Shown in pieces: positions 33,040-59,805 of a stretch of 64,000 nucleotides of DNA. The DNA is from Myxococcota bacterium (lineage in GTDB: Bacteria; Myxococcota_A; UBA9160; UBA6930), in the NCBI GenBank assembly GCA_965223415.1, contig OZ245002.1, positions 5,376,001 to 5,440,000 on the forward strand, read 5' to 3'. The notes beneath the pieces are model-generated. The model was not told where the DNA came from. It did not search any database and saw nothing but the letters and a program-made list of their open reading frames with translations. Positions within the stretch are counted from its first letter, which is position 1. Every line of letters begins with the position of its first letter. A program made the position numbers and the translations under genes.

Positions 33040-33377
33040 CCAGCCCTACCCCTCCCGACGGGTTCCTGGAACCGGCGCGCGAGACGCCGGTGCGTCATGA
33101 GGTGCCGAGGGAGGTCGAGGTCAGGATCTACGCCCAGCCCGTGTAGGGCTCGCCGCCGTCGTCACGACTCCGAGTCGAACCCGGCCAATCCGCGCCCGGA
33201 TCCTGGGCCCGCACCTGCCGATTGGGTCCTGCCTCCCATCTCGATTTCGGTGGACGGGGAGGTCGCTTGTAGCCCGCGCGGTCCCCGGCGCGAGAAGCGC
33301 CGGAAACGCGGCACTTGCCCGCAGAGCGTGCGGGTCACGTGAAACCCGAAAAGCTGAATGAAATCAGTTAGATGTCT

Positions 33378-33472
33378 GGGCGGACGGGACTCGAACCCGC
33401 GGAGCCGGGCGATAAGACCCCGGAATCGTGAGGGTTTTTCTCGGCGACCCCGTGCTCAAGGTGTGCTCAAGG
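33378..33472 (-). repeat. tRNA-Asp 3' fragment att-like site 2 (type A)
   Basis: GGGCGGACGGGACTCGAACCCGC...GTGCTCAAG x2; near copy of site 1. Confidence 0.88.
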
Positions 33473-33516
33473 CGAGCAACCAACAGGCATCGGCGCGTCC
33501 GAGCCTTGGAGCCTCC

Positions 33517-33806
33517 CTAAGCCGCCGCCTCAAGGCTCTCGCGAATGATCCGTGGGTGACGTGCGGCGATCCGGAGCAGCGCGATCGCAGGACCCTCCGG
33601 CTGCCTCCGGCCCTGCTCCCAGTTGCGAAGCGTGTGGACGCTGATTCCCATCGCCTTCGCGAAGTCCGTCTGTGTCAGCCCCACGAAGGTGCGGAGCGCA
33701 GCGATGTCCTGTCCAGACTCGAAGCGGCCCTGTATCAGCCGCCTCCGAAACGGGCGGGAATCGCCCGCTTCAGCTGCTCTTCGGTGAGTTCGGGGATATC
33801 TGTCAT
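33517..33806 (-). pseudogene. HTH antitoxin, frameshifted
   Basis: MTDIPELTEEQL in one frame, XRE HTH (GLTQ.DFA..MGIS..TLRNWEQGR) in another. Confidence 0.7.
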
Positions 33807-34092
33807 CGGCTCTGATCCATGTACGAGCGGTAAAGCGACCCCTCGCATGCGTTGGCCCAACGGGCGCCAATGATTCGAATGATGTCTTGTCGCGCTCGGT
33901 ATAGACGATGACCACGATTCGCCGCTCAATGGGACCGATCGCGATGAAGCGATCCTCGGAGTCGGAGTGTTCGCTGTGGAAGATCTCCAAGTAGTCGACA
34001 TCGGATTCGAAGAGCCATCGAGCCTCCCCGAACGAGATGCCGTGCTTCTCCTGGCTGAGCAGGTCCTTCGCATCGTCCCACTCGAAACGCAC
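33803..34092 (-). pseudogene. brnT: BrnT family toxin, frameshifted
   Basis: RFEWDDAK...KHGISF, EDRF.AIG; RIIGAR motif lies in a shifted frame. Confidence 0.75.
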
Positions 34093-34102
34093 AGGGAAGA
34101 AG

Positions 34103-34135
34103 GTAAGTCATTGACTGACTAGGTCAGTGACTTAC
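34103..34135. promoter_or_regulatory. Inverted repeat, candidate TA operator
   Basis: GTAAGTCA...TGACTTAC upstream of brnT. Confidence 0.5.
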
Positions 34136-34229
34136 GTCATTGAGCCATGGCCTCGGTGGACGTCTGAAAACCGGCCAAAGGTGGACGTCTCAAAGGCGGC
34201 CAAAGGGCCGCGCCCAGGACAGAGGGGTT

Positions 34230-34991
34230 CTACCGCGCCGGGGCCTCCTTCGGCAAGGCGGTGGTCTTCTTGGTGCGCCAGCTGCGGGGTCCGCACTTGA
34301 GCAGGTGGCCGTGGTGGAGGAGGCGGTCGAGCATGGCGGTGACGGCTGCCGTGTCGCCGAGGAGCCGGCCCCAGTCGTCGACGGGTCGGTTCGAGGTGAC
34401 GAGGGTGCTGGTGCGCTCGTAGCGGCGCATGATCAGCTCGAGGAGGTCCTCGGCGGCCGTGGTGGGGAGCTTGCGCATGCCGAGGTCGTCGAGGATGAGC
34501 AGCGGCACTCTCGCGATCTCGGCCAGGTACTCCTTGCGGGTGCCGTCGAGGGTCGCATCAGCGAGTTCCTCGAGGAGGACGTGGACCTCGCGGTAGGCGA
34601 CGCGATGGCCCTGGTGGATGACGGCGAGGCCGATCGCCTGGGCGAGATGGCTCTTGCCCGTGCCCGGCGGGCCGAGGAAGACAGCGTCCTCGGCTTGCTC
34701 GAGGAAGCGGCCCGTGGCGAGCTCGAAGACCAGGGCGCGATCGATCTTCGTATTGAAGCGGAAGTCGAAGCCGTTGAGGGTCCGGTTGGCGTCGCGGAAG
34801 CGGGCCTGCTTGATGCGCCGGGCCAGCAGTCGGTCCTGCCGGCGCTCGAGCTCGTCCTGGACGAGCGCCGAGAGCAGGTCGATGGCCGCCCACTCGCCCT
34901 TCTGGGCTTCGAGGAGCCGCATCTCCAGATGCTCGGCCATGCCCGAGAGCCGGAGCTTGCGCAGTGCGGGATCGAGTTCAGTCAGATTCAC
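34230..34991 (-). CDS. istB: IS21 helper ATPase
   Basis: GPPGTGKS, LILDDLG, LDRLLHH. Confidence 0.92.
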   Translation of the reverse strand: MNLTELDPALRKLRLSGMAEHLEMRLLEAQKGEWAAIDLLSALVQDELERRQDRLLARRIKQARFRDANRTLNGFDFRFNTKIDRALVFELATGRFLEQAEDAVFLGPPGTGKSHLAQAIGLAVIHQGHRVAYREVHVLLEELADATLDGTRKEYLAEIARVPLLILDDLGMRKLPTTAAEDLLELIMRRYERTSTLVTSNRPVDDWGRLLGDTAAVTAMLDRLLHHGHLLKCGPRSWRTKKTTALPKEAPAR

Positions 34992-36567
34992 GAGAGGTCT
35001 CCTCGGTGCGGCGATCGATGAGATCGCGGTAGTGGGTGAGCTGGCGGATGAGCGGGTCCACCTGCTTGAGCGAGAGCGGCAGCTCGGGCTGACGCTCCAG
35101 GTAGCGCTTGACGAACGCGTAGGTGGGCAGCTCGAGGGCCAGGGCGGTGGCGCAGGCATCGTCGACGCGAGGGATGCCGTGGCGCTTGCACAGGGAGAGC
35201 ACGCCCAGGATGCGACGCACCCCGGGCTCGCCGTCCAGGCGATGGATCGCCTCACACACCTCGCCCACGTGGACGCCGGCGCGCCGGGCCCGCGCGAGCA
35301 GCTGGAGGGTCGTGGCCGGCGTCCGCTTCGGGCGGTCCTCCTCCCGCATCCTGCGGCGCCCCCGCCTCTGGCGGACGTGCTCGCGCAGCAGCTCCCCCGT
35401 CTGCAGATCGAGCATCCGCACCCGCAGCCCGTCCCATTGGACGGCCACCCGCCGCCCCAGCCAGCCCGGCGGCGCGTGGTAGTAGGCCCCCTCCACCTCG
35501 ATGGCCCCGTCGAGGTGCACCGTGCGCTCGCCGTGCTGGTAGTAGCGGAAGGGCTCGATGGGAAGCCCGAGCAGGTGCGGCTTCTCCTCTTCGTACATCG
35601 CCGCCACCTGGCGCTTGGTCGTGCCGTGGATGCGGGTGTCGGCCCATCGGCGCTCCCAGCGGTCGAGGTAGGCCTGGGCCTGCTCGAGCGACTCGAAGCG
35701 CATCCCGCGGACCTTCTGCTGCGCGTGGCGCACCCCGGACTCGACCTTCCCCTTGCGATCGGGGTGGCGCACCCGGCACGGAAGCGCCGTCACGCCGTAG
35801 TGGGCGAGCACATCGCGGTAGAGGGGGTTGAGCGCGGGGTCGTAGACGTCGGGCTTGAGAACGCCCTCCTTGAGGTTGTCGAGGACGACGGTGCGCGGTG
35901 CACCGCCCAGCCGGCGGAAGGCCTTCTCGTGCAGCTCCGACCAGACCTGGCTGCTCGACTTCCACACGAGCAGCCGAACGCACTTGCGGCTGTAGCCCAG
36001 GGTGAAGACGAACAGCCTCGTGCGCCGGTACTTCCCCGACCCGGGATGCCGCACCATCGGCCCGTCGCCGTAGTCGACCTGGCCCTCTTCTCCCGGTGCC
36101 GTCTCGATCACCGGGTGCGCCTCGCGCGGCGCCGCGGCTCGCTGCTTCGCCACGAAGCGCTTCACACTCGCATAGCTGAAGGCGAAGCCGTGGTCATCGA
36201 CTAGGTCCTGCCAGATCGCCATCGCCGTCCGGCCCTGGCGCACGCCCGCCTCGATCCACTCGCGGTAGGGCTCGCAGGCGCTGGCCTGGGGGCTCCGGCC
36301 CGGCATCGGCGGCCAGGCCGGATCGGTGGACGCCTCTTTGGCCGCTTTTGCCGGGGCCTTCGAGTCGGTGGACGCCTCTATGGCCGGGTTTGGGGCCCCG
36401 TGCCCCCAGCGACCAGGAGATCGCACCGCGATCCCCGCGGCCCGGAGGTAACGGCTCGCCGTCTCCCGGCGCACGCCCGTCGCCTCCTCGATCCGCCGAA
36501 GCGACCAGCCGAGGCGGCCAAGTGCCAGAATCTGCTCGCGTTTCTCGTTGCCCAGAAGGTTCGCCAT
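34978..36567 (-). CDS. istA: IS21 transposase
   Basis: ETAPGEEGQVDYG, LDNLKEGV, KGKVES. Confidence 0.92.
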   Translation of the reverse strand: MANLLGNEKREQILALGRLGWSLRRIEEATGVRRETASRYLRAAGIAVRSPGRWGHGAPNPAIEASTDSKAPAKAAKEASTDPAWPPMPGRSPQASACEPYREWIEAGVRQGRTAMAIWQDLVDDHGFAFSYASVKRFVAKQRAAAPREAHPVIETAPGEEGQVDYGDGPMVRHPGSGKYRRTRLFVFTLGYSRKCVRLLVWKSSSQVWSELHEKAFRRLGGAPRTVVLDNLKEGVLKPDVYDPALNPLYRDVLAHYGVTALPCRVRHPDRKGKVESGVRHAQQKVRGMRFESLEQAQAYLDRWERRWADTRIHGTTKRQVAAMYEEEKPHLLGLPIEPFRYYQHGERTVHLDGAIEVEGAYYHAPPGWLGRRVAVQWDGLRVRMLDLQTGELLREHVRQRRGRRRMREEDRPKRTPATTLQLLARARRAGVHVGEVCEAIHRLDGEPGVRRILGVLSLCKRHGIPRVDDACATALALELPTYAFVKRYLERQPELPLSLKQVDPLIRQLTHYRDLIDRRTEETSRESD

Positions 36568-36774
36568 GGCGGCGGGGGATCGCAGGTCCCTCGCCGTCGT
36601 CAACGTCCTGGGCGTCAGCCCCTATGGCCGCTTTTCAGACGTCCTTCTATGGCCGGTTTTGGGTGTCCACCGAGGGCCATGGCGCAAGGCGCGCGCCCTG
36701 GACCGGGCGGTGCGTATCCCACTCGTATCCCGACTCCCAGGCGGTCGGGAAACCCTAGAGAATCCGGAACCTTG

Positions 36775-36871
36775 TGGCGGGGCGGACGGGACTCGAACCT
36801 ACAACCTCCGGCTGTAACTCCGCGGAAACCCGGGGGTTCGTGAGGCGGAGGCTTGTATCCCGTTGTATCCC
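36775..36871 (-). repeat. tRNA-Asp 3' fragment att-like site 3 (type B)
   Basis: TGGCGGGGCGGACGGGACTCGAACCTACAACCTCCGGC...TGTATCCCGTTGTATCCC; GTATCCC x2 also at 36714-36731. Confidence 0.9.
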
Positions 36872-36930
36872 ACCAGGGCGAGGGCGCTCCGGCTGGCTGG
36901 TGACCTCGCGCCTTGTGTAGCCTCTCACAC

Positions 36931-37131
36931 ATGGCGACCAACCTCGATCTCGACCCCAACCTCGTCGAGCGCGCCCTGGCCCTGAGCGGGGCCCCTACCA
37001 AGAAGGCGGCTGTGACGGCAGCCCTCCAGGAGTTCATCGCGCGGCGTGAGCAGCGCGGGCTCCTCGAGCTCTTTGGCAAGCTCGAGTGGGATCCTGGCTA
37101 CGACTACAAGCGTGAGCGCTCCCGGGATTGA
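36931..37131 (+). CDS. vapB: VapB-like antitoxin
   Basis: MATNLDLD..L...AL..SG..TKK.AV..AL.EFI; overlaps PIN toxin. Confidence 0.88.
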   Translation: MATNLDLDPNLVERALALSGAPTKKAAVTAALQEFIARREQRGLLELFGKLEWDPGYDYKRERSRD

Positions 37132-37532
37132 GCCTGTTCGTCGACACGAGCGTCTGGTCGCTCGCACTGCGCCGCGACCGTCCACCCGACGTGCCAGAGG
37201 TCGGCGCGCTCGAGCGGGCGCTCGCGGAGGGCGAGTTGATCACTACCACCGGCCTCGTCTACCAGGAGCTCCTCCAGGGGTTCCATGGCCCGCGCGACCA
37301 GGAGGCGATCGTGGCGCACTTCGGCGCCCTGCCCTTCCTGACGCCCGATCGCCACGATCACTTCGAGGCCGCGCAGTTGCGCAACCGGGCCCGCCGTCGG
37401 GGAGTCCAGGTCGGCACGATCGACGCGATCCTCGCCCAGCTCTGCATCCGCTACGAGCTACGGCTGCTCACCACCGACGCGGACTTCGCGCGAATCGCCG
37501 AGCAAGAGCCGCTGGAGCGCTGGATGCCGTAG
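37128..37532 (+). CDS. vapC: VapC PIN-domain toxin
   Basis: VDTSVWS, IDAILA, LLTTDADF. Confidence 0.92.
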   Translation: MSLFVDTSVWSLALRRDRPPDVPEVGALERALAEGELITTTGLVYQELLQGFHGPRDQEAIVAHFGALPFLTPDRHDHFEAAQLRNRARRRGVQVGTIDAILAQLCIRYELRLLTTDADFARIAEQEPLERWMP

Positions 37533-37542
37533 CAGGCCAGCC

Positions 37543-37558
37543 GGGGATTCGAACCCCC
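37543..37558 (-). repeat. tRNA T-arm fragment (Arg-type)
   Basis: GGGATTCGAACCCCC as in 43360-43374, 10 bp after the vapC stop. Confidence 0.5.
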
Positions 37559-38991: not shown

Positions 38992-39897
38992 GTGAGTGTG
39001 TTCACGGACAAGGTCGCGATCATTACCGGCGGCGCTTCCGGCATCGGCCGGGCACTCGGGGAGGCGCTGGCCCGGGCGGGGGCGCGGGTGGTGCTCGCCG
39101 ACCGCGACGCGGAGCGGCTCTTCCGAGCAGGCGAAGGCCTCGGCTCCGCCGGTGCGAGGGCCCGGACGGCCATCCTCGATGTCCGGGACTCCCGCGCGGT
39201 ACACGAGCTCGTCGAGAAGACGGCGCAGGAGCACGGCCGGCTGGACTACCTCTTCAACAACGCCGGGATCGGCGTCTTCGGCGAGGCCCGCGACGTCTCA
39301 CTCGAGGACTGGCGCAACGTCGTCGACGTCGATCTCTACGGCGTCGTGCACGGTGTCACCGCCGCGTACCCGCTCATGGTGGAGCAGGGCTCCGGCCACA
39401 TCGTCAACACGGCTTCGCTCGCCGGATTGATTCCCGGGGTCGGCGGGGCCTCCTATTCTGCAGCCAAGTACGGCGTGGTCGGCCTCTCACACGCCCTGCG
39501 CTTGGAGGCGGAGGCTCTGGGCGTCAAGGTGAGCGTGGCGTGCCCCGGCTTCGTCGAGACGGCCTTCCAGACCAGCAAGGTGGTGGGGCTGAACCGCGAG
39601 GCGTTCCTCGCCGGAGCACCGAAGCTCATGCCCGCGGACCGGTGTGCGCGGGACATCCTGCGCGGAGTCGAGCGCAACCAGGAGACCATCGTCGTCAGCA
39701 CCCTCGCCAAGGTCGCCTGGCGCTCGTACCGGTACGCGCCCGGCCTGGTGAGGTGGACCATGCGAAGAACCCTCAGAGAGATGCGCGAACTGCGCACCGA
39801 GCCATCCAGACGTCAGGGGTCCGAGATCAGGCGCTCGCCGCACGACCAAGGGCAGCCAAAGCGCCGAACCAAGCACCGCCAGAACGAGAATAGATGA
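38992..39897 (+). CDS. SDR family oxidoreductase (C-terminus reads into repeat flank)
   Basis: TGGASGIG, FNNAG, YSAAK. Confidence 0.88.
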   Translation: MSVFTDKVAIITGGASGIGRALGEALARAGARVVLADRDAERLFRAGEGLGSAGARARTAILDVRDSRAVHELVEKTAQEHGRLDYLFNNAGIGVFGEARDVSLEDWRNVVDVDLYGVVHGVTAAYPLMVEQGSGHIVNTASLAGLIPGVGGASYSAAKYGVVGLSHALRLEAEALGVKVSVACPGFVETAFQTSKVVGLNREAFLAGAPKLMPADRCARDILRGVERNQETIVVSTLAKVAWRSYRYAPGLVRWTMRRTLREMRELRTEPSRRQGSEIRRSPHDQGQPKRRTKHRQNENR

Positions 39898-39914
39898 ACG
39901 ATTCCGGGTACTTA

Positions 39915-40011
39915 TGGCGGGGCGGACGGGACTCGAACCTACAACCTTCGGCTGTAACTCCTCGGAAACGAAGGGGTTCTTGAGGCTGAAGCCTGTATCC
40001 CGTTGTATCCC
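39915..40011 (-). repeat. tRNA-Asp 3' fragment att-like site 4 (type B)
   Basis: Same core and TGTATCCC x2; left flank 39811-39914 resembles 43451-43555. Confidence 0.9.
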
Positions 40012-40061
40012 GAACCCCGACGGGCCCTGCTTCTGATAGCCAATTGGCTACCATTCGGACC

Positions 40062-40388
40062 ATGTCGGTCGCAAGCATCGTCCGGGAGGCCCGCCGCCGC
40101 GCGGGCCTGACCCAGGCCTCATTGGCCCAGAAGGCGGGCGTTCCGAAGTCCACCGTAGGCCGGATCGAGTCCGGGGCTCGAACGCCTTCGGTCGAGCTCG
40201 TGGAGCGGCTCGTCCGAGCGGCCGGGCTCGAGGTCACCATCGCCTTGTCCGAGCCCGATCCCGGAACCGACTCCTTGTTCGAGCGCACGCTACGCCGCAC
40301 ACCTGCAGAGCGACTCGCCGATGCGACTCGAGCGGCGCGCTTCGTCCTGCGCGGCAGGCGCGAGATCGCGGCCGCGGCCGATGGCTAG
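40062..40388 (+). CDS. XRE-family HTH protein (putative antitoxin)
   Basis: REARRRAGLTQ..LA.KAGV..STV.RIESG; palindrome TAGCCAATTGGCTA at 40037-40050. Confidence 0.85.
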   Translation: MSVASIVREARRRAGLTQASLAQKAGVPKSTVGRIESGARTPSVELVERLVRAAGLEVTIALSEPDPGTDSLFERTLRRTPAERLADATRAARFVLRGRREIAAAADG

Positions 40389-40896
40389 TCGCGACTTCGA
40401 CCCGGAGAAGATGCTCTCCGTGCTGGCGGAGGCAGGCGTGGAGTTCGTCCTCATCGGCGGTATGGCGGCAATCCTGCACGGCGACGTCGGGGTCACCGTC
40501 GACCTGGATGTCGTTCCTGACCGCGAAGCGGCGAATCTCGAGCGTCTCGCGCGAGCTCTACAAGAGCTTGGAGCACGCATCCGCACCGAGGGTGAGCCGG
40601 AGGGATTGGCGTTCGATTGCTCGGCCCAGTTCTTCGCCAACCTGTCTCCTGACTCGATCGTGAACATGACCACGCAGGCAGGCGACCTGGACGTCACGTT
40701 CTGCCCGAGCGGAACGCAGGGCTTCCGGGACCTCCGGCGAGACGCCGTTGAAATCGAAGCGGCCGAGCGCCTACACATCCTGGTGGCATCGCTCGCAGAC
40801 ATCATTCGCTCGAAGGAAGCTGCCGGTCGAGAGAAAGACCGCCTCGCCCTGCCCCGCCTTCGTCGACTACTGGATCGCCTCGGCGAGAGCGAGTAG
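40381..40896 (+). CDS. Nucleotidyltransferase-like protein (putative TA partner)
   Basis: FVLIGG.A..LHG...T.DLD, SK.AAGR.KD. Confidence 0.8.
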   Translation: MASRDFDPEKMLSVLAEAGVEFVLIGGMAAILHGDVGVTVDLDVVPDREAANLERLARALQELGARIRTEGEPEGLAFDCSAQFFANLSPDSIVNMTTQAGDLDVTFCPSGTQGFRDLRRDAVEIEAAERLHILVASLADIIRSKEAAGREKDRLALPRLRRLLDRLGESE

Positions 40897-42368: not shown

Positions 42369-42706
42369 TCAAGGGCTTGATGAAGAACTTCCGGACGAGC
42401 TGGCCGACATTTCGACCAGAACGTCGTAGTGGGCGTAGTTCTCCGACGTGGCGCTAACCAGGTCATGCGTCAGGATGTAGGGATCCCCCTCGATAAAGTG
42501 CTCCGTCCAGTGGCCCTCGCTGACGAGGACGCAGCCGGGTCGGATCGCATCGTCGAGTCGACATTCGATCTTCATCTGGCCCCGGTCGTTGAAGACGCTC
42601 ACGATGTCTCCATCTGCCACGTCTCTCGCCCGCGCGTCCGCGGGATGGACGCGCACGATCGGGTTCGGCTCCCGCGCATTCGGCATATCCAGATTCGCGA
42701 AGGTCG
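42369..42706 (-). pseudogene. Molybdopterin dinucleotide-binding domain remnant
   Basis: VHPADA..R...DGD.V.VFNDRG...IRPG; truncated by the IS481-like fragment. Confidence 0.75.
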
Positions 42707-42708
42707 TG

Positions 42709-43336
42709 GGACTTCGGGCTGCCGACGGCGATCCGCACCGACAACGGGGTTCCCTTCGCGTCGCCCAACGCACTCTTCGGTCTCTCGAGCTCTCGATCTG
42801 GTGGCTCAAGCTCGGCATCCAGATCCAGCGCATCAAGCCGGGCTGCCCCCAGCAGAACGGACGGCACGAACGCATGCATCTCACGCTCAAGAAAGAAGCC
42901 ACCAAGCCCGCGTCGTTCAACTTCCTGCAGCAGCAGGAGCGCTTCGACCGGTTCACAGGCGTTTACAATCACGAGCGACCGCACCAGGCCCTGGACGGGG
43001 CGTACCCCGGCGACGTCTATACACCTTCGCCGCGCGCCTACGAGCCGCCCGGGGAGCCCGAGTACCCGTTCCACGACCGATCCGTCCGGGTCACCCAGTG
43101 CGGTCGGATCTGCCTCGGACGCCGCAAGATCAATCTCAGCACCGTCTTCGCGGGCCAGACCGTGGGCCTCCGCGAGGTCGACGACCAGGTCTGGCTCGTC
43201 AGCTTCCTGGACTTCGATCTGGGCTTCTTCGACCAGGACGAGGGCCGGATCGAGCCCGCCCCGAACCCCTTCGGGCCCCAGAAAGTGTCAACCATGTCCC
43301 CGGAATGATCTGTAAACCATGTGCCCGGAATGGACC
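42709..43336 (+). mobile_element. IS481-like element, 3' part with end repeats
   Basis: IRTDNG (frameshifted) ... QQNGRHERMH; TGT.AACCATGT.CCCGGAAT x2. Confidence 0.8.
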
Positions 43337-43346
43337 GCGGAATCTT

Positions 43347-43401
43347 TGGCACGCCGGGAGGGATTCGAACCCCCGACCCCCAGGTTCGAAGCCCGATGCT
43401 C
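43347..43401 (-). repeat. tRNA-Arg(TCG) 3' two-thirds (incomplete tRNA)
   Basis: Reverse complement GAGCATCGGGCTTCGAACCTGGGGGTCGGGGGTTCGAATCCCTCCCGGCGTGCCA; 5' acceptor strand and D-arm absent. Confidence 0.88.
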
Positions 43402-43555
43402 GATGTCGAACCACCGGACAACGCAGTTCGAAGAGCCGCGCGCTTCCGGGCGTCGGGGATCCGAGATCTGGCGCTCCGCGCAACAACCAAGGGCAACCAT
43501 AGCGCCGAACCAAGCACCGCCAGAACGCGAATTACTCAGCGAATCCAGCGGGTTA

Positions 43556-43652
43556 TGGCGGGGCGGACGGGACTCGAACCTACAACCTCCGGCTGTAACC
43601 CCGCGGAAACGCGGGGGTTCGAAGAGGTGAAGCTTGTATCCCGTTGTATCCC
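43556..43652 (-). repeat. tRNA-Asp 3' fragment att-like site 5 (type B)
   Basis: Same core and TGTATCCC x2. Confidence 0.9.
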
Positions 43653-43692
43653 GCTGCGGGCAGCCGAGGGCTCCGACGCCCATGGATCGGTT

Positions 43693-43708: not shown

Positions 43709-44061
43709 CCTAGCTCGGTGCCGACGGAGGTCGAGGTCAGAATCTACGCCCTACCGGACGGCAGCGAGCCCTACACGCGGTGGGAGGCGGCACTCAGGGA
43801 CAGACAGGCGCGCGCACGGATCCGGGCGCGGATCGGACGGCTTCGGCTGGGCAACTTCGGCGACGCCAAGCGCGTCGGTGAGGTGTTCGAGCTTCGGGTG
43901 CCCGCCGGGCCCGGCTACCGCATCTACTACGGGCGGGACGGCGACGCCGTGGTGGTCCTGCTCTGCGGCGGAGACAAGTGTCGCAGGACGTGATATTCGA
44001 GGGCTAAGAGGACACGTAGATTTGCGCACCTCCTGTTGAGCCGCTGCGCGGCACGTTCCCC

Positions 44062-46860: not shown

Positions 46861-46975
46861 GGTCCGTGATCACACGTGAAGGCATCAACAACAAGGGGTC
46901 GCATAGCAGAGCAATCCTCGGGTGAGCGACAACCCCGTCGATCGACCGGCGCTCCTGGTGGGCCCGTGGCGGGCT

Positions 46976-49798: not shown

Positions 49799-50053
49799 CT
49801 AGGCGATACCAGGGTACGGTCCGGCCACATCCTTTACAGGAGTCCAGGGACATCGTTTACACCCGGGGGATGCCCTGGATGGAAACGGATGTCATTTCTC
49901 ACGGGCATGACTCACCTTTTCTCACGGGCATGACCCAGGCCTGACCGCGGTTTTCTCACGAGCATGACCCACCCCAGATGGGGGGGGCTCAGGAGGAGGC
50001 CGGTCCCGTGGCCGACCCAGGCCATTCTGCGGCGCCAGAGGAGGCGCAGGCAG

Positions 50054-51766
50054 ATGGCGTATCGCGAGGTCGGCATGTGGGAGATTCTGGAGGTGCTCCG
50101 CCGGGCGCACCGAGGCGAGAGCCAGGTGGCGATGGCGCGGGCCACGGGGCACACGCGCAAGACGATCCGGCGCTACGTGCAAGTCGCCGGGGAGCTGGGC
50201 TGGGTCGCCAGGGGGCCGAGGGAGCCGGATGAGGCCCTGGCCCAAGGGGTGGCGGCTCGGGTGCGGCCTGTGCCCACGCAGCGCGACGCGGGAGAGAGCG
50301 AGGCGCAGCTGGCGCCGCATGCCGACCGGATCCGAGCGTGGCTCCAGCCCGAGGCGGGTGGCCGAGGACTGCGGCTGACGAAGGTCTACGACCTGCTCGG
50401 GCGCGAGGGCGTGCGCGTCCCCTACAGCTCGCTCCACCGCTTCGCGGTCCGCCACTGCGGGTTCCAAGACCGGCGCCGGGTGACGGTGCGCATGGCGGCG
50501 GTGGCCCCCGGCGAGCTCGCCGAGGTCGACTTCGGCCGCCTCGGCATGGTCTGGGATCCGGAGACCGGGCGCCGCCGCACCGTTCATGCCCTGATCGTCA
50601 CCCTCGTCCATAGCCGCCACCAGTACGTCCACGTGACCTACGGCCAGAAGCTCCCCGATCTGCTCGAGGGGCTCGAGGACGCCTGGGCGTTCTTCGGCGG
50701 GGTCCCGGTGCGCGTGGTGCTGGACAATCTGAAGGCGGCCGTCACGAAGGCCGACCGCTACGAGCCGATCTTCCAGCGCACCTTCGCCGAGTACGCCCAC
50801 TACCGCGGCTTCGTCATCGATGCCGCCGTGCCTCGGCATCCCAAGGGCAAGCCCCACGTCGAGCGCCAGGTGCAGTACGTGCGCGAGCGCTTCTTCCGTG
50901 GCGAGCAGTGGCTGGGACGCGACCACGTGCAGCGCGAGGCCGCGCGCTGGTGCCTGGAGGTCGCCGGCCAGCGCACTCACGGGACGACGCGCAAGAGGCC
51001 CCTGGCCGTCTTCGAGAACACGGAGAAGCCGGCTCTGCAGCCCCTCGTGCGCCCGCGCTTCGATCCGCCCACCTGGGCCGAGGCGAAGGTCCACCCCGAC
51101 CACCACGTCCAGTTCCAAAAGGCCTTCTACACCGTGCCCACCCGCCACGTGGGCAAGCGCGTCTGGGTTCGCGGCGACTCGAAGCTCATCCGCATGTACG
51201 TCGACGGCGAGTGCATCAAGACCCACGAGCGCGTGGACCCTGGCTGCCGCTCCACCGACTACCACGACTATCCGCCCGAGCGTGCCCCCTACGCCATGCG
51301 GGACCCGGAAGCGGCGATCCGCCAGGCGCGCGACCAGGGGCCTCACATTGGGCGCTTCGCCGAGAAGCTCCTGGCCGGCCCCTTCCCCTGGTCCAAGCTC
51401 CGCCAGGCCCAGAAGCTGCTTCGCCTCGGCCACAAGTACGGCCTGCCGCGCGTCGACGCCGGCTGCCGCAGGGCCCTCGCCTTCGACCTCATCAACACGA
51501 AGCGCCTCGAACGCATCGTGGCCGAAGGCATCCAGCCGCTCGGCGACCCCAGCACCCCCGGACAGCTCCTGCTCCTGCCGCCCCGTTTCCTGCGCCCGCA
51601 AGGGCACTTCACCCACCCCAACGACAACCCCGACAAGGAGACCACCCCCCATGACGACCGAGATCAACCCGTCCCTCAAGACCCTGCTCAAACGCCTGAA
51701 GCTCTCGGGCATGCTGGCCACGCTCCCCGATCGCGTGGCCTACACCCGGAAGACGAAGCTCCCTGA
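50054..51766 (+). CDS. istA: IS21 transposase
   Basis: Same protein as 12890-14602. Confidence 0.93.
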   Translation: MAYREVGMWEILEVLRRAHRGESQVAMARATGHTRKTIRRYVQVAGELGWVARGPREPDEALAQGVAARVRPVPTQRDAGESEAQLAPHADRIRAWLQPEAGGRGLRLTKVYDLLGREGVRVPYSSLHRFAVRHCGFQDRRRVTVRMAAVAPGELAEVDFGRLGMVWDPETGRRRTVHALIVTLVHSRHQYVHVTYGQKLPDLLEGLEDAWAFFGGVPVRVVLDNLKAAVTKADRYEPIFQRTFAEYAHYRGFVIDAAVPRHPKGKPHVERQVQYVRERFFRGEQWLGRDHVQREAARWCLEVAGQRTHGTTRKRPLAVFENTEKPALQPLVRPRFDPPTWAEAKVHPDHHVQFQKAFYTVPTRHVGKRVWVRGDSKLIRMYVDGECIKTHERVDPGCRSTDYHDYPPERAPYAMRDPEAAIRQARDQGPHIGRFAEKLLAGPFPWSKLRQAQKLLRLGHKYGLPRVDAGCRRALAFDLINTKRLERIVAEGIQPLGDPSTPGQLLLLPPRFLRPQGHFTHPNDNPDKETTPHDDRDQPVPQDPAQTPEALGHAGHAPRSRGLHPEDEAP

Positions 51767-52457
51767 GCTCGACCTCCTGGAGCTCGTCCTTCAGGACGAA
51801 GTCGATCGCCGCGACCACAAGAACCTCGAGACGCGCCTTTCCCGCGCCGGCTTCGAGGAAGAGCAGACCCTCGAGGCCTTCGACTGGGATGCCCCCGTCA
51901 CCTTCGATCGCGATCGCGTGAAGGACCTCTTCTCCCTCGGCTTCCTCGAGCGCCACGAGGACGTCATCCTGCTCGGCCCCGTGGGCGTGGGCAAGACCTT
52001 CCTGGCCTCCGCCCTGGGACACGCCGCCTGCCGGGCCGGGCACCACGTCCTCTTCCTCCGCGTCGACCGCATGTTCCACTGGCTCCACCAGTCGCGAGCC
52101 GACCTCTCGACCGAGAAGGTCTTCCGACGCCTCCTCGCCCCGGACCTCCTCGTCCTCGACGACTTCGGCCTCCGGCGCCTCTCCGCCGAGCAGTCGAGCG
52201 ATCTCTACGAGGTCGTCCTCGAACGCCACCGCCGCGCTTCGACGATCGTCACCAGCAACCGCGCCATCGAGGAATGGATCCCCCTCTTCGACGACCCCAT
52301 CCTGGCCCAGAGCGCCCTCGACCGCCTCGCCCACAACGCCTACCAGCTCGTCATCGAGGGCGAGAGCTACCGCAAGCAACAGCGCCCCGGCGAAATGCCG
52401 ACCCACACCCCCGCCAATCCCCAGCGCCGAAGCCGCCGCCGAACCCGCGTCCGCTGA
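51651..52457 (+). CDS. istB: IS21 helper ATPase
   Basis: Same protein as 12199-13005. Confidence 0.93.
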   Translation: MTTEINPSLKTLLKRLKLSGMLATLPDRVAYTRKTKLPELDLLELVLQDEVDRRDHKNLETRLSRAGFEEEQTLEAFDWDAPVTFDRDRVKDLFSLGFLERHEDVILLGPVGVGKTFLASALGHAACRAGHHVLFLRVDRMFHWLHQSRADLSTEKVFRRLLAPDLLVLDDFGLRRLSAEQSSDLYEVVLERHRRASTIVTSNRAIEEWIPLFDDPILAQSALDRLAHNAYQLVIEGESYRKQQRPGEMPTHTPANPQRRSRRRTRVR

Positions 52458-53929
52458 CGCCAAACAAGGAGCGTGCTACCTCATCCACCGGCCCGGGACC
52501 CATGGGTCAACCCCGTGAGAATACCTGGGTCATGCCCGCGGGAATCGACAAACGGATGCAAGGAAGCAGCGGCAGGCGTTCGTTCGCGACTACGAGAGCG
52601 GTCAGTGGTCGATGAGCGAGCTGTGTCGGCGGTATCGTGTCTCCCGGCCCACAGGCTACAAGTGGCTCGGGCGCTTCGAGTCGGAGGGGGAGGCCGGCCT
52701 GGAGGAGAGGTCCCGTGCGCCGGCTCGCTGCCCGCACAGGACGCCAGCGAGCGTGGAGCGCAAGATCCTGGCCCTTCGCGCCGAGTACGGCTGGGGTGCG
52801 AAGAAGATCTTGCAGGTGCTCGAGCGCCGGTACCCGAAGATGCAGAGGCCCGCGCGAAGCACGGTGAACGCGATCCTCGATCGCCACGGCAAGCTGCGCA
52901 AGAACCGACGTCGGAAGAAGTGGTCGCATCCCGGCGCTGCGTCGCTGTCGACCGACCACCCGAACCAGGTGTGGCCCGCGGACTTCAAGGGCCAATTCAA
53001 GATGCGCAACGGTCGCTACTGCTACCCGCTGACCGTGACCGACCACTGCAGCCGCAAGCTCCTGATGTGCCGCGGGCTGCACTCGATTCGCACCGAGGGC
53101 GTGAAGCCGCTGTTTCGGGAGCTCTTTCGCGAGGTCGGACTTCCCGAGGCGATTCGCACCGACAACGGTGCCCCCTTCGCATCGACCGGGATCCACGGCC
53201 TGTGCGAACTCAACGTGTGGTGGATGAAGCTCGGCATCGTGCACCAGCGCATCCGTCCTTCGAGCCCCCAACAGAACGGGCAGCACGAGAGGATGCACAA
53301 GGACCTCAAACGCGAGGCGACCCGCCCGCCTGGCGCGAACCTCAACGTCCAGCAGCGGATGCTCGAGGCCTTTCGTCGACGCTACAACGAGGAGCGGCCG
53401 CACGAAGCACTCGGTGGAGCGTTTCCCGAGGAGCGCTACGAGCCCTCGCCGCGGCCGTACCCCAGTCGCCTCTCGCCGCCGGAGTACCCTGCGCAGATGG
53501 AAGTGCGCCGCGTGAGCCGGGCCGGGACGTTTCGGCTGAAGGCGAAGCAGCCCTTCCTGAGCAACGCACTGGCCGATGAGTACATCGGACTTGAAGAGAT
53601 CGGCGACGGCATCTGGAGCATCGTCTACTACGAGACGATCCTGGGCCGCATCGACGAGCGCAGCAGGAAGATCACCGGAGTCTGAGAGGTGTAAACGATC
53701 TACCTGGACTTGTGTAAAGGATCAGCCGGACCGGTCACAGGGCACCGGGCGATCCCGAGCGTTGGCGTCTGGCCTACAACCATGCGGAGCGATTGGGGGT
53801 GTCGGGTGCCGGTCGGTGCCGTCACTGCCGAGCGGCCGAGTCTCGCAACCCCTCGAGAACACTGCGTGTCCGAACTGAGCCCCAGCCGCGGCACCTGAGG
53901 GTCGCAGCGGAACCGATGCAACCCCGCGT

Positions 53930-54674
53930 GTGCTTAGCGAGACATCGCTGACACCTGATTCCGGAGACATGGTTTACACAATCGGCAATTTGGGGAGCCC
54001 CCGGATGCCGTGGAGAACGTGTAGACCGATGGATGAACGCCTCCGCTTCGTAGCTCGCCTGCTCGAGGGCGAGAAGATGGCGCCCCTGTGCCGCGAGTTC
54101 GGGATCTCCCGGGTCACCGGGTACAAGATCTACGAGCGCTACAAGACCTGCGGCCTCGAGGGCCTGAACGACCGCTCCCGCCGGCCCTATCGCCACGCCA
54201 ACAAGCTGCCGTACCAGGTCGAACGCGCGATCCTGGGGATCAAGAAGGAGTACCCCTCCTGGGGGGCTCCGAAGATCCGCGACAAGCTGATCCGCGACTT
54301 CCCGATGATCAAACCGCCCGCGGTGAGCACGGTGCATGCCGTGCTGGATCGCAACGGACTGGTCATGCGGCGGAAGCGGAGACGCCACAAGGCCAAGGGC
54401 ACGGAGCTCAAGGCGGCCCACGCTCCGAACGGCCTGTGGTGCGCAGACTTCAAGGGCGAGTTCATGCTCGGCAGCAAGCAGTACTGCTACCCGCTGACGA
54501 TCACCGACTACCGAACGCGCTACCTACTCGCCTGCGAGGGTCTCTCGTCGACGCGGTCGGACTTCGCCTTCTCCGTCTTCGAGAGGACCTTCAAGGACTT
54601 CGGGCTGCCGACGGCGATCCGCACCGACAACGGGGTTCCCTTCGCGTCGCCCAACGCACTCTTCGGTCTCTCGA
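53930..54674 (+). mobile_element. IS481-like element, 5' part (transposase from 54005, truncated)
   Basis: MPWRTC.PMDERLRF...WCADFKG...IRTDNG, then breaks off. Confidence 0.82.
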
Positions 54675-54681
54675 AGTCAAC

Positions 54682-55014
54682 ATGCTCGAAGGCATCTTCG
54701 GAAACGCCAGCGCCGAGAAAGTGCTGCTCTACCTCGAGCAGTACGAGGAGGGCTACGCGACCGCGATCGCCCGGACCTTCGACGGCCTGTCGCTCAACAT
54801 GGCGCAGCGGCAGCTCGAGCGATTCGAGCGCGCCGGCGCGCTGGTGAGCTCGCTCCAGGGCCGCACCCGCCTCTACACCTGGAATCCCCGCTATCCGTTT
54901 CGGCGCGAGCTGCGGGCCCTCCTCCGCAAGGCGCTCGACCAGCTGCCCGCGTCAGAGCGCAAGCGCTACTTCACCGAACGAAGACGGCCGCGCCGAGCGG
55001 GCAAGCCGATTTGA
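54682..55014 (+). CDS. Winged-helix (ArsR-like) protein
   Basis: MLEGIFGN...KVLLYL....EGYA..IA; overlaps a truncated downstream ORF at 55011. Confidence 0.75.
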   Translation: MLEGIFGNASAEKVLLYLEQYEEGYATAIARTFDGLSLNMAQRQLERFERAGALVSSLQGRTRLYTWNPRYPFRRELRALLRKALDQLPASERKRYFTERRRPRRAGKPI

Positions 55015-55216
55015 GCAAGAAGCCTCGGATCAGCCAGCCCACCTCTCTGGAGGATCTGGCCGCCCTCGTCTGCTCCACGCTTGTCGAGGGACGTCATCTC
55101 TTGCGCGCTAAGAGGACGGCTAGTTTTGCGCACCCCCCTGGGTTGATGTTCGGTTCTTCCTTCTTCTCTTCCGCTCTCCGAAGGAGAGCACGGCCGTCAG
55201 GCCGCCCTCTGGGGCC

Positions 55217-56017
55217 TCAACGCTGGGCGCTTTGCCCCGCGGCCTGCTCGAGCTCGCGGAGCCGGTAGCTCCGCCCCGAGATGTTGAGCACCTGGCTGTG
55301 GTGGAGGAGGCGATCGAGGATGGCGGTGGCCAGCACCTCGTCGCCCGCCAGCACCTCGGGCCAGTCGGCGATGCCCTTGTTCGTGGTGATCAGGATCGAG
55401 CCCCTCCCATAGCGGTAGGAGACGAGCCGGAAGAAGAGGCTCGCCTCCTGGCGCGTCATGGGCTCGAAGCCGACCTCGTCGATGACGAGGAGCGCCACGT
55501 TCATGTGCTTGCGCCGCCGCAGCCGTTGCGGGCTGATCTCGGCGTCGCGCTTGAGGGCCGCCAGCAGGTCCTCGAGGCGATGGAAGGCCACGGAGAAGCC
55601 GTTCTCCACGGCCCGCACCCCCAGGGCCACCGCCAGGTGGGTCTTGCCCACTCCCGGCGGACCCTGGATCAGCAGACTCTCCTTGGCCCGGATCCACGCG
55701 CAGGTGCCCAGCGTCTCGATCCGGCTCCGCTCCACACTCGGCTGGAAGGCGAAGTCGAAGTTGCCGAGGGTCTGCCCCGTGGGAAGGCCCGAGAGACGGA
55801 GCGAGGTCTTCATCCTCCGCTCCTCGCGGTGCTGCAGCTCGGCCTCGAGCAGCAGGTCGAGGAAGCGGTGGGGCACGAGGTCGTCCTTGGTCGCTCGGGC
55901 CAGCTCCTCGCCGATGTGCTCGGCCGCGTGATGGAGGCCGAGGCGCACGAGCCGCTCGCGGGTCGGGTCGAGATCCACCTTGCCGCCCTTCTTGGGCACC
56001 GGGTTTCCCGCCGTCAT
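55217..56017 (-). CDS. istB: IS21 helper ATPase
   Basis: Same protein as 45345-46145. Confidence 0.95.
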   Translation of the reverse strand: MTAGNPVPKKGGKVDLDPTRERLVRLGLHHAAEHIGEELARATKDDLVPHRFLDLLLEAELQHREERRMKTSLRLSGLPTGQTLGNFDFAFQPSVERSRIETLGTCAWIRAKESLLIQGPPGVGKTHLAVALGVRAVENGFSVAFHRLEDLLAALKRDAEISPQRLRRRKHMNVALLVIDEVGFEPMTRQEASLFFRLVSYRYGRGSILITTNKGIADWPEVLAGDEVLATAILDRLLHHSQVLNISGRSYRLRELEQAAGQSAQR

Positions 56018-57300
56018 CGCGCCACCTCCGCCAGATCGGCATAGAGGTCGATCGGCCGCTGCTCCGGCTCCATCGCCCACAGCTCCTGGAGGCGTCGACC
56101 CATGCGCCCGAGCGGTACGGGCGCCTCCACCCCCTCCGTGCTCGGCCCCTCGTAGTGGCTCGGGTCCAGCAGCAGGCGGCTTCGCGTGTGGCGCGGGTGC
56201 GCGGCCACCACCGAGCCCTCGGCCCAGACCTGCACCTGCCGGGCGCAGCCGCGCACCTCGACGCTCTGCTCGACGAAGCGGAAGGGGACGCTGTAGGTAC
56301 GCCCCTCGAAGCGCACCGTGGCGTCGCGCCCGACACGTCGCATCACGGCCAGGTCGAAGGGCTCGGGAAGCCGCTCGGGCAGGGCCCCGAGATGGGGCTT
56401 CTCCGCCTCCCACGCCTGGAAGACCGTCGTGCCCGTCGCCGGGCACTGCCGCCGGTGGCTCGAGCGCGCCACCTGGCCGTCCGTCCACGCTTGCAGCGAC
56501 TCCAGGCTCTCGTGCTCCCGCCGACGCGGATCGAAGCCCCGCCGGTGCCCCAGGATCCGACGCTCCACCTTCCCCTTCTCCTGCGGCTGGCGGGGACGGG
56601 TGGCGTCCACGTGGAAGCGAAGGGCCCCGGCATAGCTCGCGTAAGCCGGGTTCACCGTCCCCCATGGCCCCGCCCCCTTCGCCACCGCTGTCTTCACGTT
56701 GTCGACCCGCAGCACCGCCGGCACCCCGCCCAGCCGCTCGAAGGCCCGGTTGTGCACGTCCAGCCACGCCAGCGTGTCCGCCCGCTCCGACCACACCACC
56801 GCTTCTCGCCGCGAGTGCGAGAGCACCAGGTGGAAGGCATGCAGGTCCACCTCCTGGCCCCCGATCCGCACGCCCGGAAACTCGCCCCAGTCCACCTGAC
56901 CCTGCGCCCCGGGCGGTGTCTCCACCCGACGCCGGCTCCGCACCTTCGGTCTCGGGAACCGGGCCCGCACGTACCGCTGCACGCTCTTGGAGCTCCCCGT
57001 GTACCCGTGCTCCTCCACCAGGAACTCGTGAAGCTCCTGCAGGTTCACGCCACGGCCTCCCGAGCTCGCCTCCAGCCACTCCGCGATCACCTCGTGGACC
57101 GCCTCGGCCAGGAAGGGCTTCCCGCTCCGGCCGTCTCGCGCCCCCTCCGCCAGCCGCTTCAGCCGGTAGCGCACCGCGCTCTCCCGGATCCCCAGCTGGC
57201 GGGCGATCTCCCGGTTCGAGCACCCCCGCTCGTGCAGCACTTCGATCGTCATCACTTCCTCCTGCCTCAGTCGCCGCTGCCCCACGCCCCCCTCCCTCAC
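56014..57300 (-). CDS. istA: IS21 transposase
   Basis: Same protein as 44062-45348. Confidence 0.95.
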   Translation of the reverse strand: MREGGVGQRRLRQEEVMTIEVLHERGCSNREIARQLGIRESAVRYRLKRLAEGARDGRSGKPFLAEAVHEVIAEWLEASSGGRGVNLQELHEFLVEEHGYTGSSKSVQRYVRARFPRPKVRSRRRVETPPGAQGQVDWGEFPGVRIGGQEVDLHAFHLVLSHSRREAVVWSERADTLAWLDVHNRAFERLGGVPAVLRVDNVKTAVAKGAGPWGTVNPAYASYAGALRFHVDATRPRQPQEKGKVERRILGHRRGFDPRRREHESLESLQAWTDGQVARSSHRRQCPATGTTVFQAWEAEKPHLGALPERLPEPFDLAVMRRVGRDATVRFEGRTYSVPFRFVEQSVEVRGCARQVQVWAEGSVVAAHPRHTRSRLLLDPSHYEGPSTEGVEAPVPLGRMGRRLQELWAMEPEQRPIDLYADLAEVAR

Positions 57301-57383
57301 GGGGAACGTGCCGCGCAGCGGCTCAACAGGAGGTGCGCAAATCTACGTGTCCTCTTAGCCCTCGAATATCACGTCCTGCGACA

Positions 57384-57685
57384 ACCTCTACCCGACGGTG
57401 CAGGTCCACCACCTGCACCATGCGCGCGAGCGGCGCCTGCAGGACTCGAACTTCGCGGGCGTGAGCACCCTCTTCGACGTCGTGTTCGGCACCTTCCGCC
57501 ACCCCGACGGGCACCCGTTCGAGGACTACGGCATCGGGGGCGACCCGGTGCCCGCGGGCTTCATCGCGCAGCTCCTCTACCCCGTGCGCCGATGGTTCGA
57601 AGGCGCGATGGGCGCGGGCGGCGGCGCCTCCGTTGGAGGGAGCCTCGCGGAGACGGCCGGGCGTGGGCACCCTCCGTCGGGGTGA
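57384..57685 (+). pseudogene. Sterol desaturase 3' remnant
   Basis: HHLHH...NFA.....D.VFGTF; 5' part replaced by IS21. Confidence 0.75.
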
Positions 57686-57758
57686 TGCGATTCGCGTGGG
57701 CGGCGCAGAGCTATCCTCTGAGTTCGATCTGGGCTTTGGGCACGGGGAGCTGCGGGAG

Positions 57759-58559
57759 ATGACCGTGGGCGACGAAGCCACCTACCAGCTACTGCGCGGC
57801 TTGGGGCTCGCTGTCGCCTTTGCGCTAGGAATCGCGCTGGAGCAGTGGCGCCCGCACGAACGCCTGCGACCGGCGTGGCGCACCAACGTCGGCCTCTGGG
57901 CCATCGACGCCGCCGTCATGGCCGCTGTCTGCGGGGCGTGCGGGTGGCTCGTGGCCGCCTGGGCGGCGAGCCTCGGACTCGGGCTCTTCGCCTGGCTTGA
58001 CACCCCCACCTGGGCGGCGGCCGCGTTCGGCGTGCTGGCGCTCGATGGCGTCTCGTACGCCTGGCACCGCGCGAACCACCGGATCCCGCTCCTCTGGCGC
58101 TTCCACCAGGTACATCACGCGGACACGAGCTTCCACGTGACGACGGCGTTGCGCTTCCATCCCGGAGAGCTCCTGCTCGCCCTCCCCGTCCGCCTCGCCG
58201 CCGTGGTGGCGTTGGGCGTGCCACCGGCGGGCGTCCTCCTCTTCGAGATCGTCTTCGGGATCGCGAACCTCCTGGAGCACGGGAACTTCGACCTTCCCCG
58301 CCGCTTCGAGCCCTTGGCGCAGCGCGTGCTCATCACGCCGGCGCTGCACCGGGCGCATCACGTCTCCGACTGGCAGGAGCTGGACACGAACTTCGGCACG
58401 ATCCTCTCGGCGTGGGATCGCCTCGCCGGAACGCTGCGCACGAGTGACGGGGCTCGCCGCGTGGTGACCGGGCTGCCCGACTGGAAAGCAGAACGAGCGC
58501 CGTCGCTCTCGGAGTCGCTCTTCCTGCCCCTTTCCCAAAGCCGTTCGCGAGCGCGCTGA
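57759..58559 (+). CDS. Sterol desaturase / fatty acid hydroxylase family
   Basis: HRANH, HQVHH, RFHPGE, HRAHH boxes. Confidence 0.92.
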   Translation: MTVGDEATYQLLRGLGLAVAFALGIALEQWRPHERLRPAWRTNVGLWAIDAAVMAAVCGACGWLVAAWAASLGLGLFAWLDTPTWAAAAFGVLALDGVSYAWHRANHRIPLLWRFHQVHHADTSFHVTTALRFHPGELLLALPVRLAAVVALGVPPAGVLLFEIVFGIANLLEHGNFDLPRRFEPLAQRVLITPALHRAHHVSDWQELDTNFGTILSAWDRLAGTLRTSDGARRVVTGLPDWKAERAPSLSESLFLPLSQSRSRAR

Positions 58560-58720
58560 AGACCCCACCCGGCGAACTCCAACAACGGCTCGATGGGCGC
58601 GGTTGTATCCCGCTTGTATCCCGACCCGCGCACACGTCGAGAACACGAGCGAGCACGCCCACTTGCAGACGAAGCGTGCGGGTTTCGAGAAACCCGAAAA
58701 GCTGAACGAAATCAGCTAGA

Positions 58721-58817
58721 TGGCGGGGCGGACGGGACTCGAACCTACAACCTCCGGCCCTAAGTGCCCGGAAACACAATGGTTCAGACGACTGAAGCTT
58801 GTATCCCGTTGTATCCC
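58721..58817 (-). repeat. tRNA-Asp 3' fragment att-like site 6 (type B variant)
   Basis: Same core, TGTATCCC x2; second pair at 58603-58622; left flank resembles 33312-33374. Confidence 0.9.
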
Positions 58818-59800: not shown

Positions 59801-59805
59801 AGGGG

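Follow-up and report, generated by a model that had tools for sequence, protein, structure and literature searches.

The DNA considered here is a window of 64,000 nucleotides (nt) from a Myxococcota bacterium (contig OZ245002.1, positions 5,376,001 to 5,440,000, of a genome of 5.83 Mb in one contig, hereafter G000), and the subject is an array of tRNA-Asp fragments that runs through it. The 20-mer GGGCGGACGGGACTCGAACC occurs six times without mismatch, at window positions 18724, 33378, 36780, 39920, 43561 and 58726, always on the plus strand, against a mean of 0.00 across 100 shuffles. When the whole genome is searched, 12 copies are found (11 exact, one with one mismatch), again on the plus strand only, with none for the reversed pattern used as a control, and a degenerate 13th copy lies near genome position 4922733. 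The 20-mer corresponds, in reverse complement, to the T-arm and acceptor end of tRNA-Asp(GTC); read on the minus strand together with the TGGCG to its left it gives GGTTCGAGTCCCGTCCGCCCCGCCA, which comprises the T-arm, the 3′ acceptor strand, the discriminator base and CCA. In the following, the 20-mer is referred to as the core (+1 to +20) and the six sites as s1 to s6; the right flanks fall into types A and B, and the left flanks include the classes L-x and L-y. The features of the window, including the putative attachment (att) cores, insertion sequences (IS), helix-turn-helix (HTH) proteins and open reading frames (ORFs), are as follows.

18724-18743, minus strand: s1, tRNA-Asp 3′ fragment (att core) and the leftmost array copy.
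18744-18818: s1 right flank, type A, with a mimic of the tRNA body, the CGGAATCG motif and GTGCTCAAG twice at 18798-18817.
18774-19561, plus strand: PIN/VapC with a VapB-like partner (weak, E 0.0018), just past the s1 A arm.
33312-33377: s2 left flank, L-x; beyond it to the left we read only a degenerate 9-mer pair.
33378-33397, minus strand: s2 core, with GTCT in place of TGGCG.
33398-33472: s2 right flank, type A, with GTGCTCAAG twice at 33452-33471.
33517-34092, minus strand: BrnT toxin and HTH antitoxin pair past the s2 A arm.
34151-36675, minus strand: IS21-family element, 2525 bp, multicopy (about 8-10 times the depth).
36676-36779: short left arm of s3, with a B-type 9-mer pair at 36714-36731 (about -67).
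36780-36799, minus strand: s3 core.
36800-36872: s3 right flank, type B, with TTGTATCCC twice at 36855-36871.
36913-37529, plus strand: VapB-VapC pair past the s3 B arm.
39803-39919: s4 left flank, L-y.
39920-39939, minus strand: s4 core.
39940-40012: s4 right flank, type B, with the 9-mer pair at 39995-40011.
40044-40893, plus strand: Xre-HTH and DUF6036 nucleotidyltransferase pair past the s4 B arm.
43345-43404, minus strand: tRNA-Arg(TCG) 3′ fragment at the left edge of the s5 L-y flank (ARAGORN/Rfam: weak tRNA at 43351-43420).
43381-43560: s5 left flank, L-y, with three CAACCAAR-like repeats near -88, -77 and -66.
43561-43580, minus strand: s5 core.
43581-43653: s5 right flank, type B, with the 9-mer pair at 43636-43652.
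43718-43990: Gp49/HigB-like ORF (weak) past s5, interrupted by an IS21 element at 43979.
58603-58725: s6 left flank, L-x, with a B-type 9-mer pair at 58605-58622 (about -121).
58726-58745, minus strand: s6 core.
58746-58818: s6 right flank, type B, with the 9-mer pair at 58801-58817.
58883-59218: Gp49/HigB-like ORF (weak score) past s6.

The source of the cores is found outside the window. ARAGORN predicts 59 tRNA genes in the genome, among them a single tRNA-Asp(GTC), at c[5456702-5456778], which is 16.7 kb past the window end and is the rightmost of eight same-strand copies spread across 62 kb (5394724-5456707). The seven 3′ fragments are thus all located downstream of the 3′ end of the intact gene and in the same orientation. 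At the six window sites no tRNA is called by ARAGORN or Rfam, all six being 3′ fragments, and the 5′ half of the tRNA is retained in none of the fragments. Of the first 13 nucleotides of the right flanks, 9-10 match the tRNA body. A second cluster of five tRNA-Asp cores, also in one orientation, lies at genome positions 4913196-4923733, 470 kb from the tRNA gene.

The original prediction held that the left and right flanks of the core are shuffled between sites and that this is the footprint of an exchange within the core. The flank classes that it described are recovered when the sites are aligned. Right flank A is common to s1 and s2 (89% identity over 75 nt) and right flank B to s3 to s6 (79-89%), with 53-61% identity between A and B. 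The left flank of s2, which is joined to A, recurs at s6, where it is joined to B (77% over 125 nt; 72% over -125 to -6), and s4 and s5 share another left flank (78%; 84% over 210 nt). Two details need adjustment: the 20-mer is indeed present at all six sites, but it is not the only shared sequence, as TGGCG directly precedes it at five of the six (not at s2), and the proposed range of 33312-58817 takes in s2 to s6 while omitting s1 at 18724. The similarity matrices of the left and right flanks are uncorrelated when considering the 13 genome sites (Mantel r=0.03, p=0.38), and also when considering the six window sites only (r=0.21, p=0.19).

The position of the exchange is also in agreement with the proposal, as the homology of pairs of sites that share one flank ends at the core edges (-5 to +20). 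It extends past the core by 0 nt to the left for s1 and s2, by 0 nt to the right for s2 and s6 and for the G000 sites a2 and s2, and by 5 nt to the left for a1 and s6. Flanks of different classes are about 50-60% alike, and the identity common to all sites is confined to 20-25 nt. Flank B agrees with the tRNA body at 10 of its first 13 nt, and the differences at +21 and +22 are retained, so that the exchange would have been to the left of +21. An exchange within the 20-25-nt tRNA-Asp core is therefore supported by the alignments. Shuffling among pre-existing sites is unnecessary for this pattern; serial insertion suffices, because with a left flank that comes from the left-hand element and a right flank that comes from the right-hand element, independent elements meet at each core and the flanks appear shuffled.

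Among relatives the same core is widespread: of 193 genomes of the order, 96 have it in exact form, and about 31 have at least two copies (17 in G035, 11 in G000). In G035, which belongs to another family, one contig carries the intact tRNA-Asp and seven same-strand fragments across 57 kb. The arrangement with the intact tRNA gene (tDNA) at one end, followed downstream by displaced 3′ fragments in the orientation of the tDNA, is therefore seen in both G000 and G035. An SCP2 gene on the 5′ side of the tRNA is syntenic with the core in seven relatives (G004, G001, G009, G012, G028, G030 and G008), which places the variable DNA on the 3′ side. A feature-based look-up of the SCP2 protein itself gives a weak indication of Myxococcota.

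A tyrosine integrase (PF00589) is found beside the tRNA-Asp gene in four of the five relatives searched, the exception being G005. In these four loci (G035:C17, G022:C25, G004:C47 and G001:C534) it faces the core and ends about 130 nt to the left of the intact tRNA-Asp core. All four have a tandem pair of 9-mers with 11-nt spacing at -66 to -68, after the motif of the catalytic tyrosine (..ERYAKLA..). The integrase-side 9-mers are as follows.

Type A: GTGCTCAAG, in G004.
Type A′: GTGCTCATG, in G035.
Type B: TGTATCCC, in G001.
Type C: TTGTCACCC, in G022.

Between types A and A′, the integrases have 79% identity and the 9-mers a difference of 1 nt; among A, B and C, the identity of the integrases is 38-42% and the 9-mers are unrelated. 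It is very likely that these integrase lineages, and probably two further ones (D and E), use different 9-mers on one core. Two further pair types, GTGGATCC and TGTGGCCGG, are also found. The geometry of both arms is seen in the tRNA-adjacent element of 7.4 kb in G035, which has the integrase, GTGCTCATG twice on each arm (about -67 and +75), and as cargo a TetR regulator, a metallo-beta-lactamase-fold protein and a cytochrome c. On the right flank, the 9-mer pair begins at +67 to +76 in 25 of 36 sites of five genomes, and 5 of the 11 sites without a pair are intact tRNAs. The paired 9-mers of both sides are direct repeats, not inverted ones. In G000, exact GTATCCC pairs are inside the arrays in 10 of 10 cases and exact GTGCTCAAG pairs in three of three, and the arm pairs are intact at 11 of the 13 sites. 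The 9-mers are putative arm-type binding sites of the integrases, and right flank, core and left flank together may correspond to a lambda-like attP. The stop-to-stop frame of the integrase crosses the core in G035, G004 and G001, a weak indication in high-GC DNA, and the G022 frame stops before the 9-mer pair.

Taken together, it is very likely that the six sites are the joints of small integrative elements that entered the 3′ end of the only tRNA-Asp(GTC) gene serially, in tandem. A tyrosine integrase of the type that adjoins tRNA-Asp in the relatives would have acted as the recombinase, with strand exchange within the 20-25 nt common to element and tRNA (-5 to +20), and each insertion would restore the tRNA while moving a 3′ fragment further out. 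To the right of a core would then be the integrase-distal arm of the right-hand element, in which a tRNA-body mimic of about 13 nt and the conserved motif CGGAAWCG are accompanied by a tandem pair of 9-mers at about +75. To the left would be the integrase-proximal arm of the left-hand element, which in autonomous elements would carry two tandem 9-mers at about -67, just past the catalytic tyrosine of the integrase. At each joint the far arm of one element would lie beside the near arm of the next, the two having been acquired separately. The polarity of the array, the restriction of identity to the core, the geometry of the arms and the position of integrases beside tRNA-Asp in relatives are observed directly; protein binding to the 9-mers, the order of the insertions and the present immobility of the elements in G000 are inferred.

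Later IS activity would have removed integrases and fused neighbouring elements. The B-type left pair of s3 is at the position (about -67) seen beside integrases in relatives, and the 2525-bp IS21-family element ends 38 nt before this pair, where relatives have the 3′ end of the integrase; an IS-mediated deletion probably fused two elements across the s2-s3 interval in this way. To the left of s1, the flank keeps the A-rich arm motif, and the adenylate cyclase/TPR gene found there has paralog-level matches only (about 40%, same genus), so that the outer border of the inserted DNA is not fixed.

Several observations weigh against this explanation. Neither array of G000 has an integrase (there are 11 PF00589 matches genome-wide, the nearest at 5485941), the whole genome has no PF00239 match for a serine recombinase, and tblastn with four queries finds no remnants of a cognate integrase in G000, the matches being 35-42% paralogs elsewhere and short translations that cross the core. 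Insertion by these integrases is accordingly deduced from the relatives only, and their binding to the 9-mers is putative. The arms are mismatched within the intervals s1-s2 (A with L-x) and s2-s3 (A with B). L-y lacks 9-mer pairs of type A or B, and nowhere is an integrase seen beside it. At the end of the second array (4.913-4.924 Mb), an intact tRNA-Asp is missing. Finally, the similarity of these integrases to the Int protein of phage Mx8, discussed below, is weak (E 1e-4 over about 105 aa).

A toxin-antitoxin-like module follows each of the six window sites within about 300 nt (with weak scores at s5 and s6, and a weak VapB at s1), and in many genomes of the order such arms are again accompanied by the VapBC and Xre-nucleotidyltransferase modules. 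Nothing but arms, a toxin-antitoxin pair and cargo is found in the intervals s3-s4 and s4-s5, where genes for an integrase or for transfer are absent; as att-bounded segments lacking both, the G000 cassettes resemble cis-mobilizable elements (CIMEs), and their mobilization by a related integrase is putative. Over the arrays, the cargo consists of catabolic genes and of IS21, IS481, IS5 and IS110 copies. An integrase of its own accompanies the tRNA-proximal element in G035, G022, G004 and G001, and none accompanies the islands in the G000 arrays.

These features have a second possible explanation, which is considered rather unlikely, namely that the array is a working cassette platform on which integrase-less, non-autonomous cassettes are excised, captured and reordered in trans by the matching-arm integrases of incoming elements, in an integron-like manner. 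A cassette would then consist of a right arm, a toxin-antitoxin pair, cargo and an L-x or L-y left arm, and the recurrence of the toxin-antitoxin-like module after all six window sites agrees with this. Moreover, three of four integrase-less intervals that end in L-x have the same 9-mer type on both arms (G000 s5-s6, B/B; G000 a1-a2, B/degenerate B; and G022:C17, A′/A′, with no PF00589 on the contig), which fits non-autonomous cassettes that can be mobilized in trans. Between G000 and G035, which are of different families, the unit of L-y, core and B has 86% identity over 307 nt, and tblastn finds no integrase pseudogene in the G000 arrays, in which 9-mer pairs are kept as described above. On the other hand, G000 has no cognate integrase, L-y is without a matching 9-mer pair, the L-x interval s1-s2 is mismatched, and the C-terminal integrase remnants beside two G035 sites indicate that autonomous elements decay. 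Also, no whole cassette is found end to end in any of the 193 genomes of the order, where the longest non-self match is 1203 nt (6.5-kb query, E3 + E4). Contigs assembled from the four runs in which the region is present end at the att sites, with no joint between two cores, and are uninformative on excision. In its widest form, this proposal amounts to integron-like gene capture at tRNA-Asp in these, probably myxobacterial, genomes, in which integrase-less cassettes led by toxin-antitoxin genes have full attP arms in the style of lambda, one core of 20-25 nt serves at least four to six integrase lineages of differing arm-site specificity, and L-y is a universal, perhaps dual (tRNA-Arg and tRNA-Asp) landing arm; this, too, is doubtful. 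If true, the array could be extended by any incoming element, with its cassettes open to exchange or to mobilization in trans.

It is very improbable that the copies arose by duplication of the tRNA-Asp locus with RecA-dependent recombination or gene conversion in place of site-specific insertion. In its favour, the copies are direct repeats on one strand, and six other sites have the L-y flank that lies beside the intact tRNA, but the identity common to all sites covers just 20-25 nt with flanks of different classes 50-60% alike, no fragment keeps the 5′ half of the tRNA, and the same arms adjoin integrases in other genomes. Hardly more credible is the idea that the units are genes for structured small RNAs with a tRNA-like 3′ end, or ends of transposons or miniature inverted-repeat transposable elements: the minus strand does yield T-arm, acceptor strand and CCA, and a GAAA-capped hairpin can be drawn in flank B, but the six sites have no tRNA or Rfam match, the 9-mer pairs are direct and not inverted, and all copies have one orientation. 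When 15 B flanks are analysed with RNAalifold, no compensatory pair is found, and for the GAAA hairpin 68.6% of cells pair, with one pair only having a change on both sides.

Serial insertion into tRNA-Asp is next compared with systems that are already described. For myxophage Mx8, which integrates at attB sites of M. xanthus, attB is presumably a tRNA-Asp gene. Its attP is inside int, and integration gives int a new 3′ end, at least as outlined in the review PMC6070905. The layout within the annotated int coding sequence, with TGTGACAGC twice at -78 and -67, an A-rich stretch, TGGCG and a tRNA-Asp-like core, is that of the left arms described here. An open integrase frame runs through the core in three of the four relatives as well, which in high-GC DNA is a weak indication. 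The systems differ in that Mx8 is a phage of 49.5 kb, compared with elements of 3-15 kb without phage genes, and in that the best blastp match of the array-type integrases to Mx8 Int has an E of 1e-4 with about 30% identity over 105-107 aa. There is no 9-mer pair within 100 nt to the right of the Mx8 core. A tblastn search of 50,697 phage records with the B-type integrase gives no match at E 1e-5, and a DNA search of the phage collection with tRNA-Asp gives phage tRNA genes only.

Tandem accretion at one RNA gene is described for Dehalococcoides, where multiple islands downstream of ssrA are bounded by 20-bp direct repeats of its 3′ end, with over a dozen repeats per region, and where 15 islands without an integration module are read as cis-mobilizable elements mobilized by accretion (McMurdie et al. 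2011, PMC3146451). Going by that account, the tandem islands at one RNA gene, the 20-bp 3′-end repeats and the integrase-less members are common to both systems, whereas the target there is tmRNA and the enzyme a serine recombinase, compared with tRNA-Asp, the tyrosine integrases of relatives, lambda-like arms and several arm specificities here. Tycheposons of Prochlorococcus are cargo elements at tRNA genes in which successive insertions are separated by a partial tRNA only, and their islands have scattered fragmented integrases and further partial tRNAs (bioRxiv 10.1101/2020.12.28.424599). As far as this preprint describes them, they resemble the present array in the stacking of tRNA-targeted cargo insertions with partial tRNAs in between; they belong to another phylum and another element family, and their average of 1-2 elements per genome differs from the seven fragments behind one tRNA found here. 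The Islander data set defines islands by a tDNA and a displaced fragment in the same orientation, with a crossover class at the junction of T-stem and acceptor, allows integrases that extend across attP (for example Mx8 and SSV), and reports 125 tandems of at least two and four of at least three among 3919 islands, with an integrase required for each member (Hudson et al. 2015, PMC4383910). The array has the same signature of tDNA, displaced fragment and crossover class, and by the rules given in that source it would fail the filter for an integrase per member.

When considering integrons, the resemblance is to the arrays and not to the sites. Chromosomal integrons have long same-orientation arrays of promoter-poor cargo cassettes between recombination sites, with interspersed toxin-antitoxin cassettes. 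The sites described here differ in being tRNA-derived cores with duplex, arm-type direct 9-mer repeats, hairpin support for them is weak, and the arrays have no integrase; an IntI with attI and attC hairpins is absent.

The L-y flank deserves separate description. It is the commonest left flank (7 of 13 sites, including one beside the intact tRNA-Asp), and in s5, s7 and several G035 copies it begins with a tRNA-Arg(TCG) 3′ fragment of 58-65 nt. A relic of an integrase 3′ end was considered as its origin and rejected, since its translations have no integrase-like tail and the one weak tblastn match (E 0.008) enters the core. Other tRNA-Arg(TCG) fragments, with a tandem repeat of their own (GGGTGCAAT/GGGTGCAGG), are present at window positions 7532-7679, 15942-16083, 46711-46871 and 61027-61187. 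They make up a second att-like family, whose crossover is close to the anticodon loop and whose members alternate with those of the tRNA-Asp array. An integrase frame overlaps the genuine tRNA-Arg gene (genome 1217012-1217088), which also has a distal fragment at 1256796. An IS110-family element of 1487 bp with a DEDD transposase occurs in five near-identical copies (window 59556-61042; genome 4911536-4913030, 4921087-4922586, 4929062-4930556 and 2539251-2540743). At least three of these abut the anticodon-stem part of tRNA-Arg(TCG) fragments (..CAGGTTCGAAGCC..), with an uninterrupted paralogous site at window 46709-46711, and it looks as if the element targets this tRNA-Arg-derived motif sequence-specifically.

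To the left of the second cluster are an IS110 copy, an IS21 copy and an N-terminal fragment of an Arm-DNA-bind_3 integrase. This fragment (genome 4908141-4908791, cut by the IS21) is of another integrase type and could not be tied to the array. The G000 integrase paralogs (35-42%) adjoin other tRNA-like or tmRNA-like ends, with other repeats. Two of them are at genome positions 4179096-4180319 and 1873306-1874592; one ends beside a tmRNA-like 3′ end (..CCGCCTCCACCA, other strand), and next to the end of the other are a tandem TTGGCGACAAG pair and a tRNA-like 3′ fragment that is not annotated.

IS21-family and IS481 elements are located at window positions 10192-15183, 43979-46281, 49890-53737 and 55081-57383. 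There are three IS21-family elements, of 2303, 2661 and 2525 bp, with about 20, 7 and at least 9 genome copies that are mostly 100% identical, and the 2661-bp element is nested inside the 2303-bp element at 12106-14766. IS activity is much younger than the divergence of the att units, which have 80-93% identity. One IS481-like transposase gene is found in two halves, 11 kb apart, at 42481-43308 and 53879-54847; the halves overlap by 80 nt with 100% identity (42709-42788 and 54595-54674), which is a sign that the array has been rearranged internally.

The tandem stacking of islands at a tRNA or tmRNA gene, including islands that lack an integrase, has been described before. The present array is an unusually long, integrase-less case of it, in which an att layout like that of Mx8 is combined with several arm specificities for a single core. 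A stretch of 62 kb rich in IS elements and catabolic genes is thereby explained as DNA gathered at one tRNA gene. The core together with a 9-mer pair at -67 and +75 provides a sequence rule for arrays in which no integrase survives, which island finders that depend on integrases would overlook. The several arm specificities on one shared core also constitute a natural set for examining how tyrosine integrases change their recognition of arm sites.

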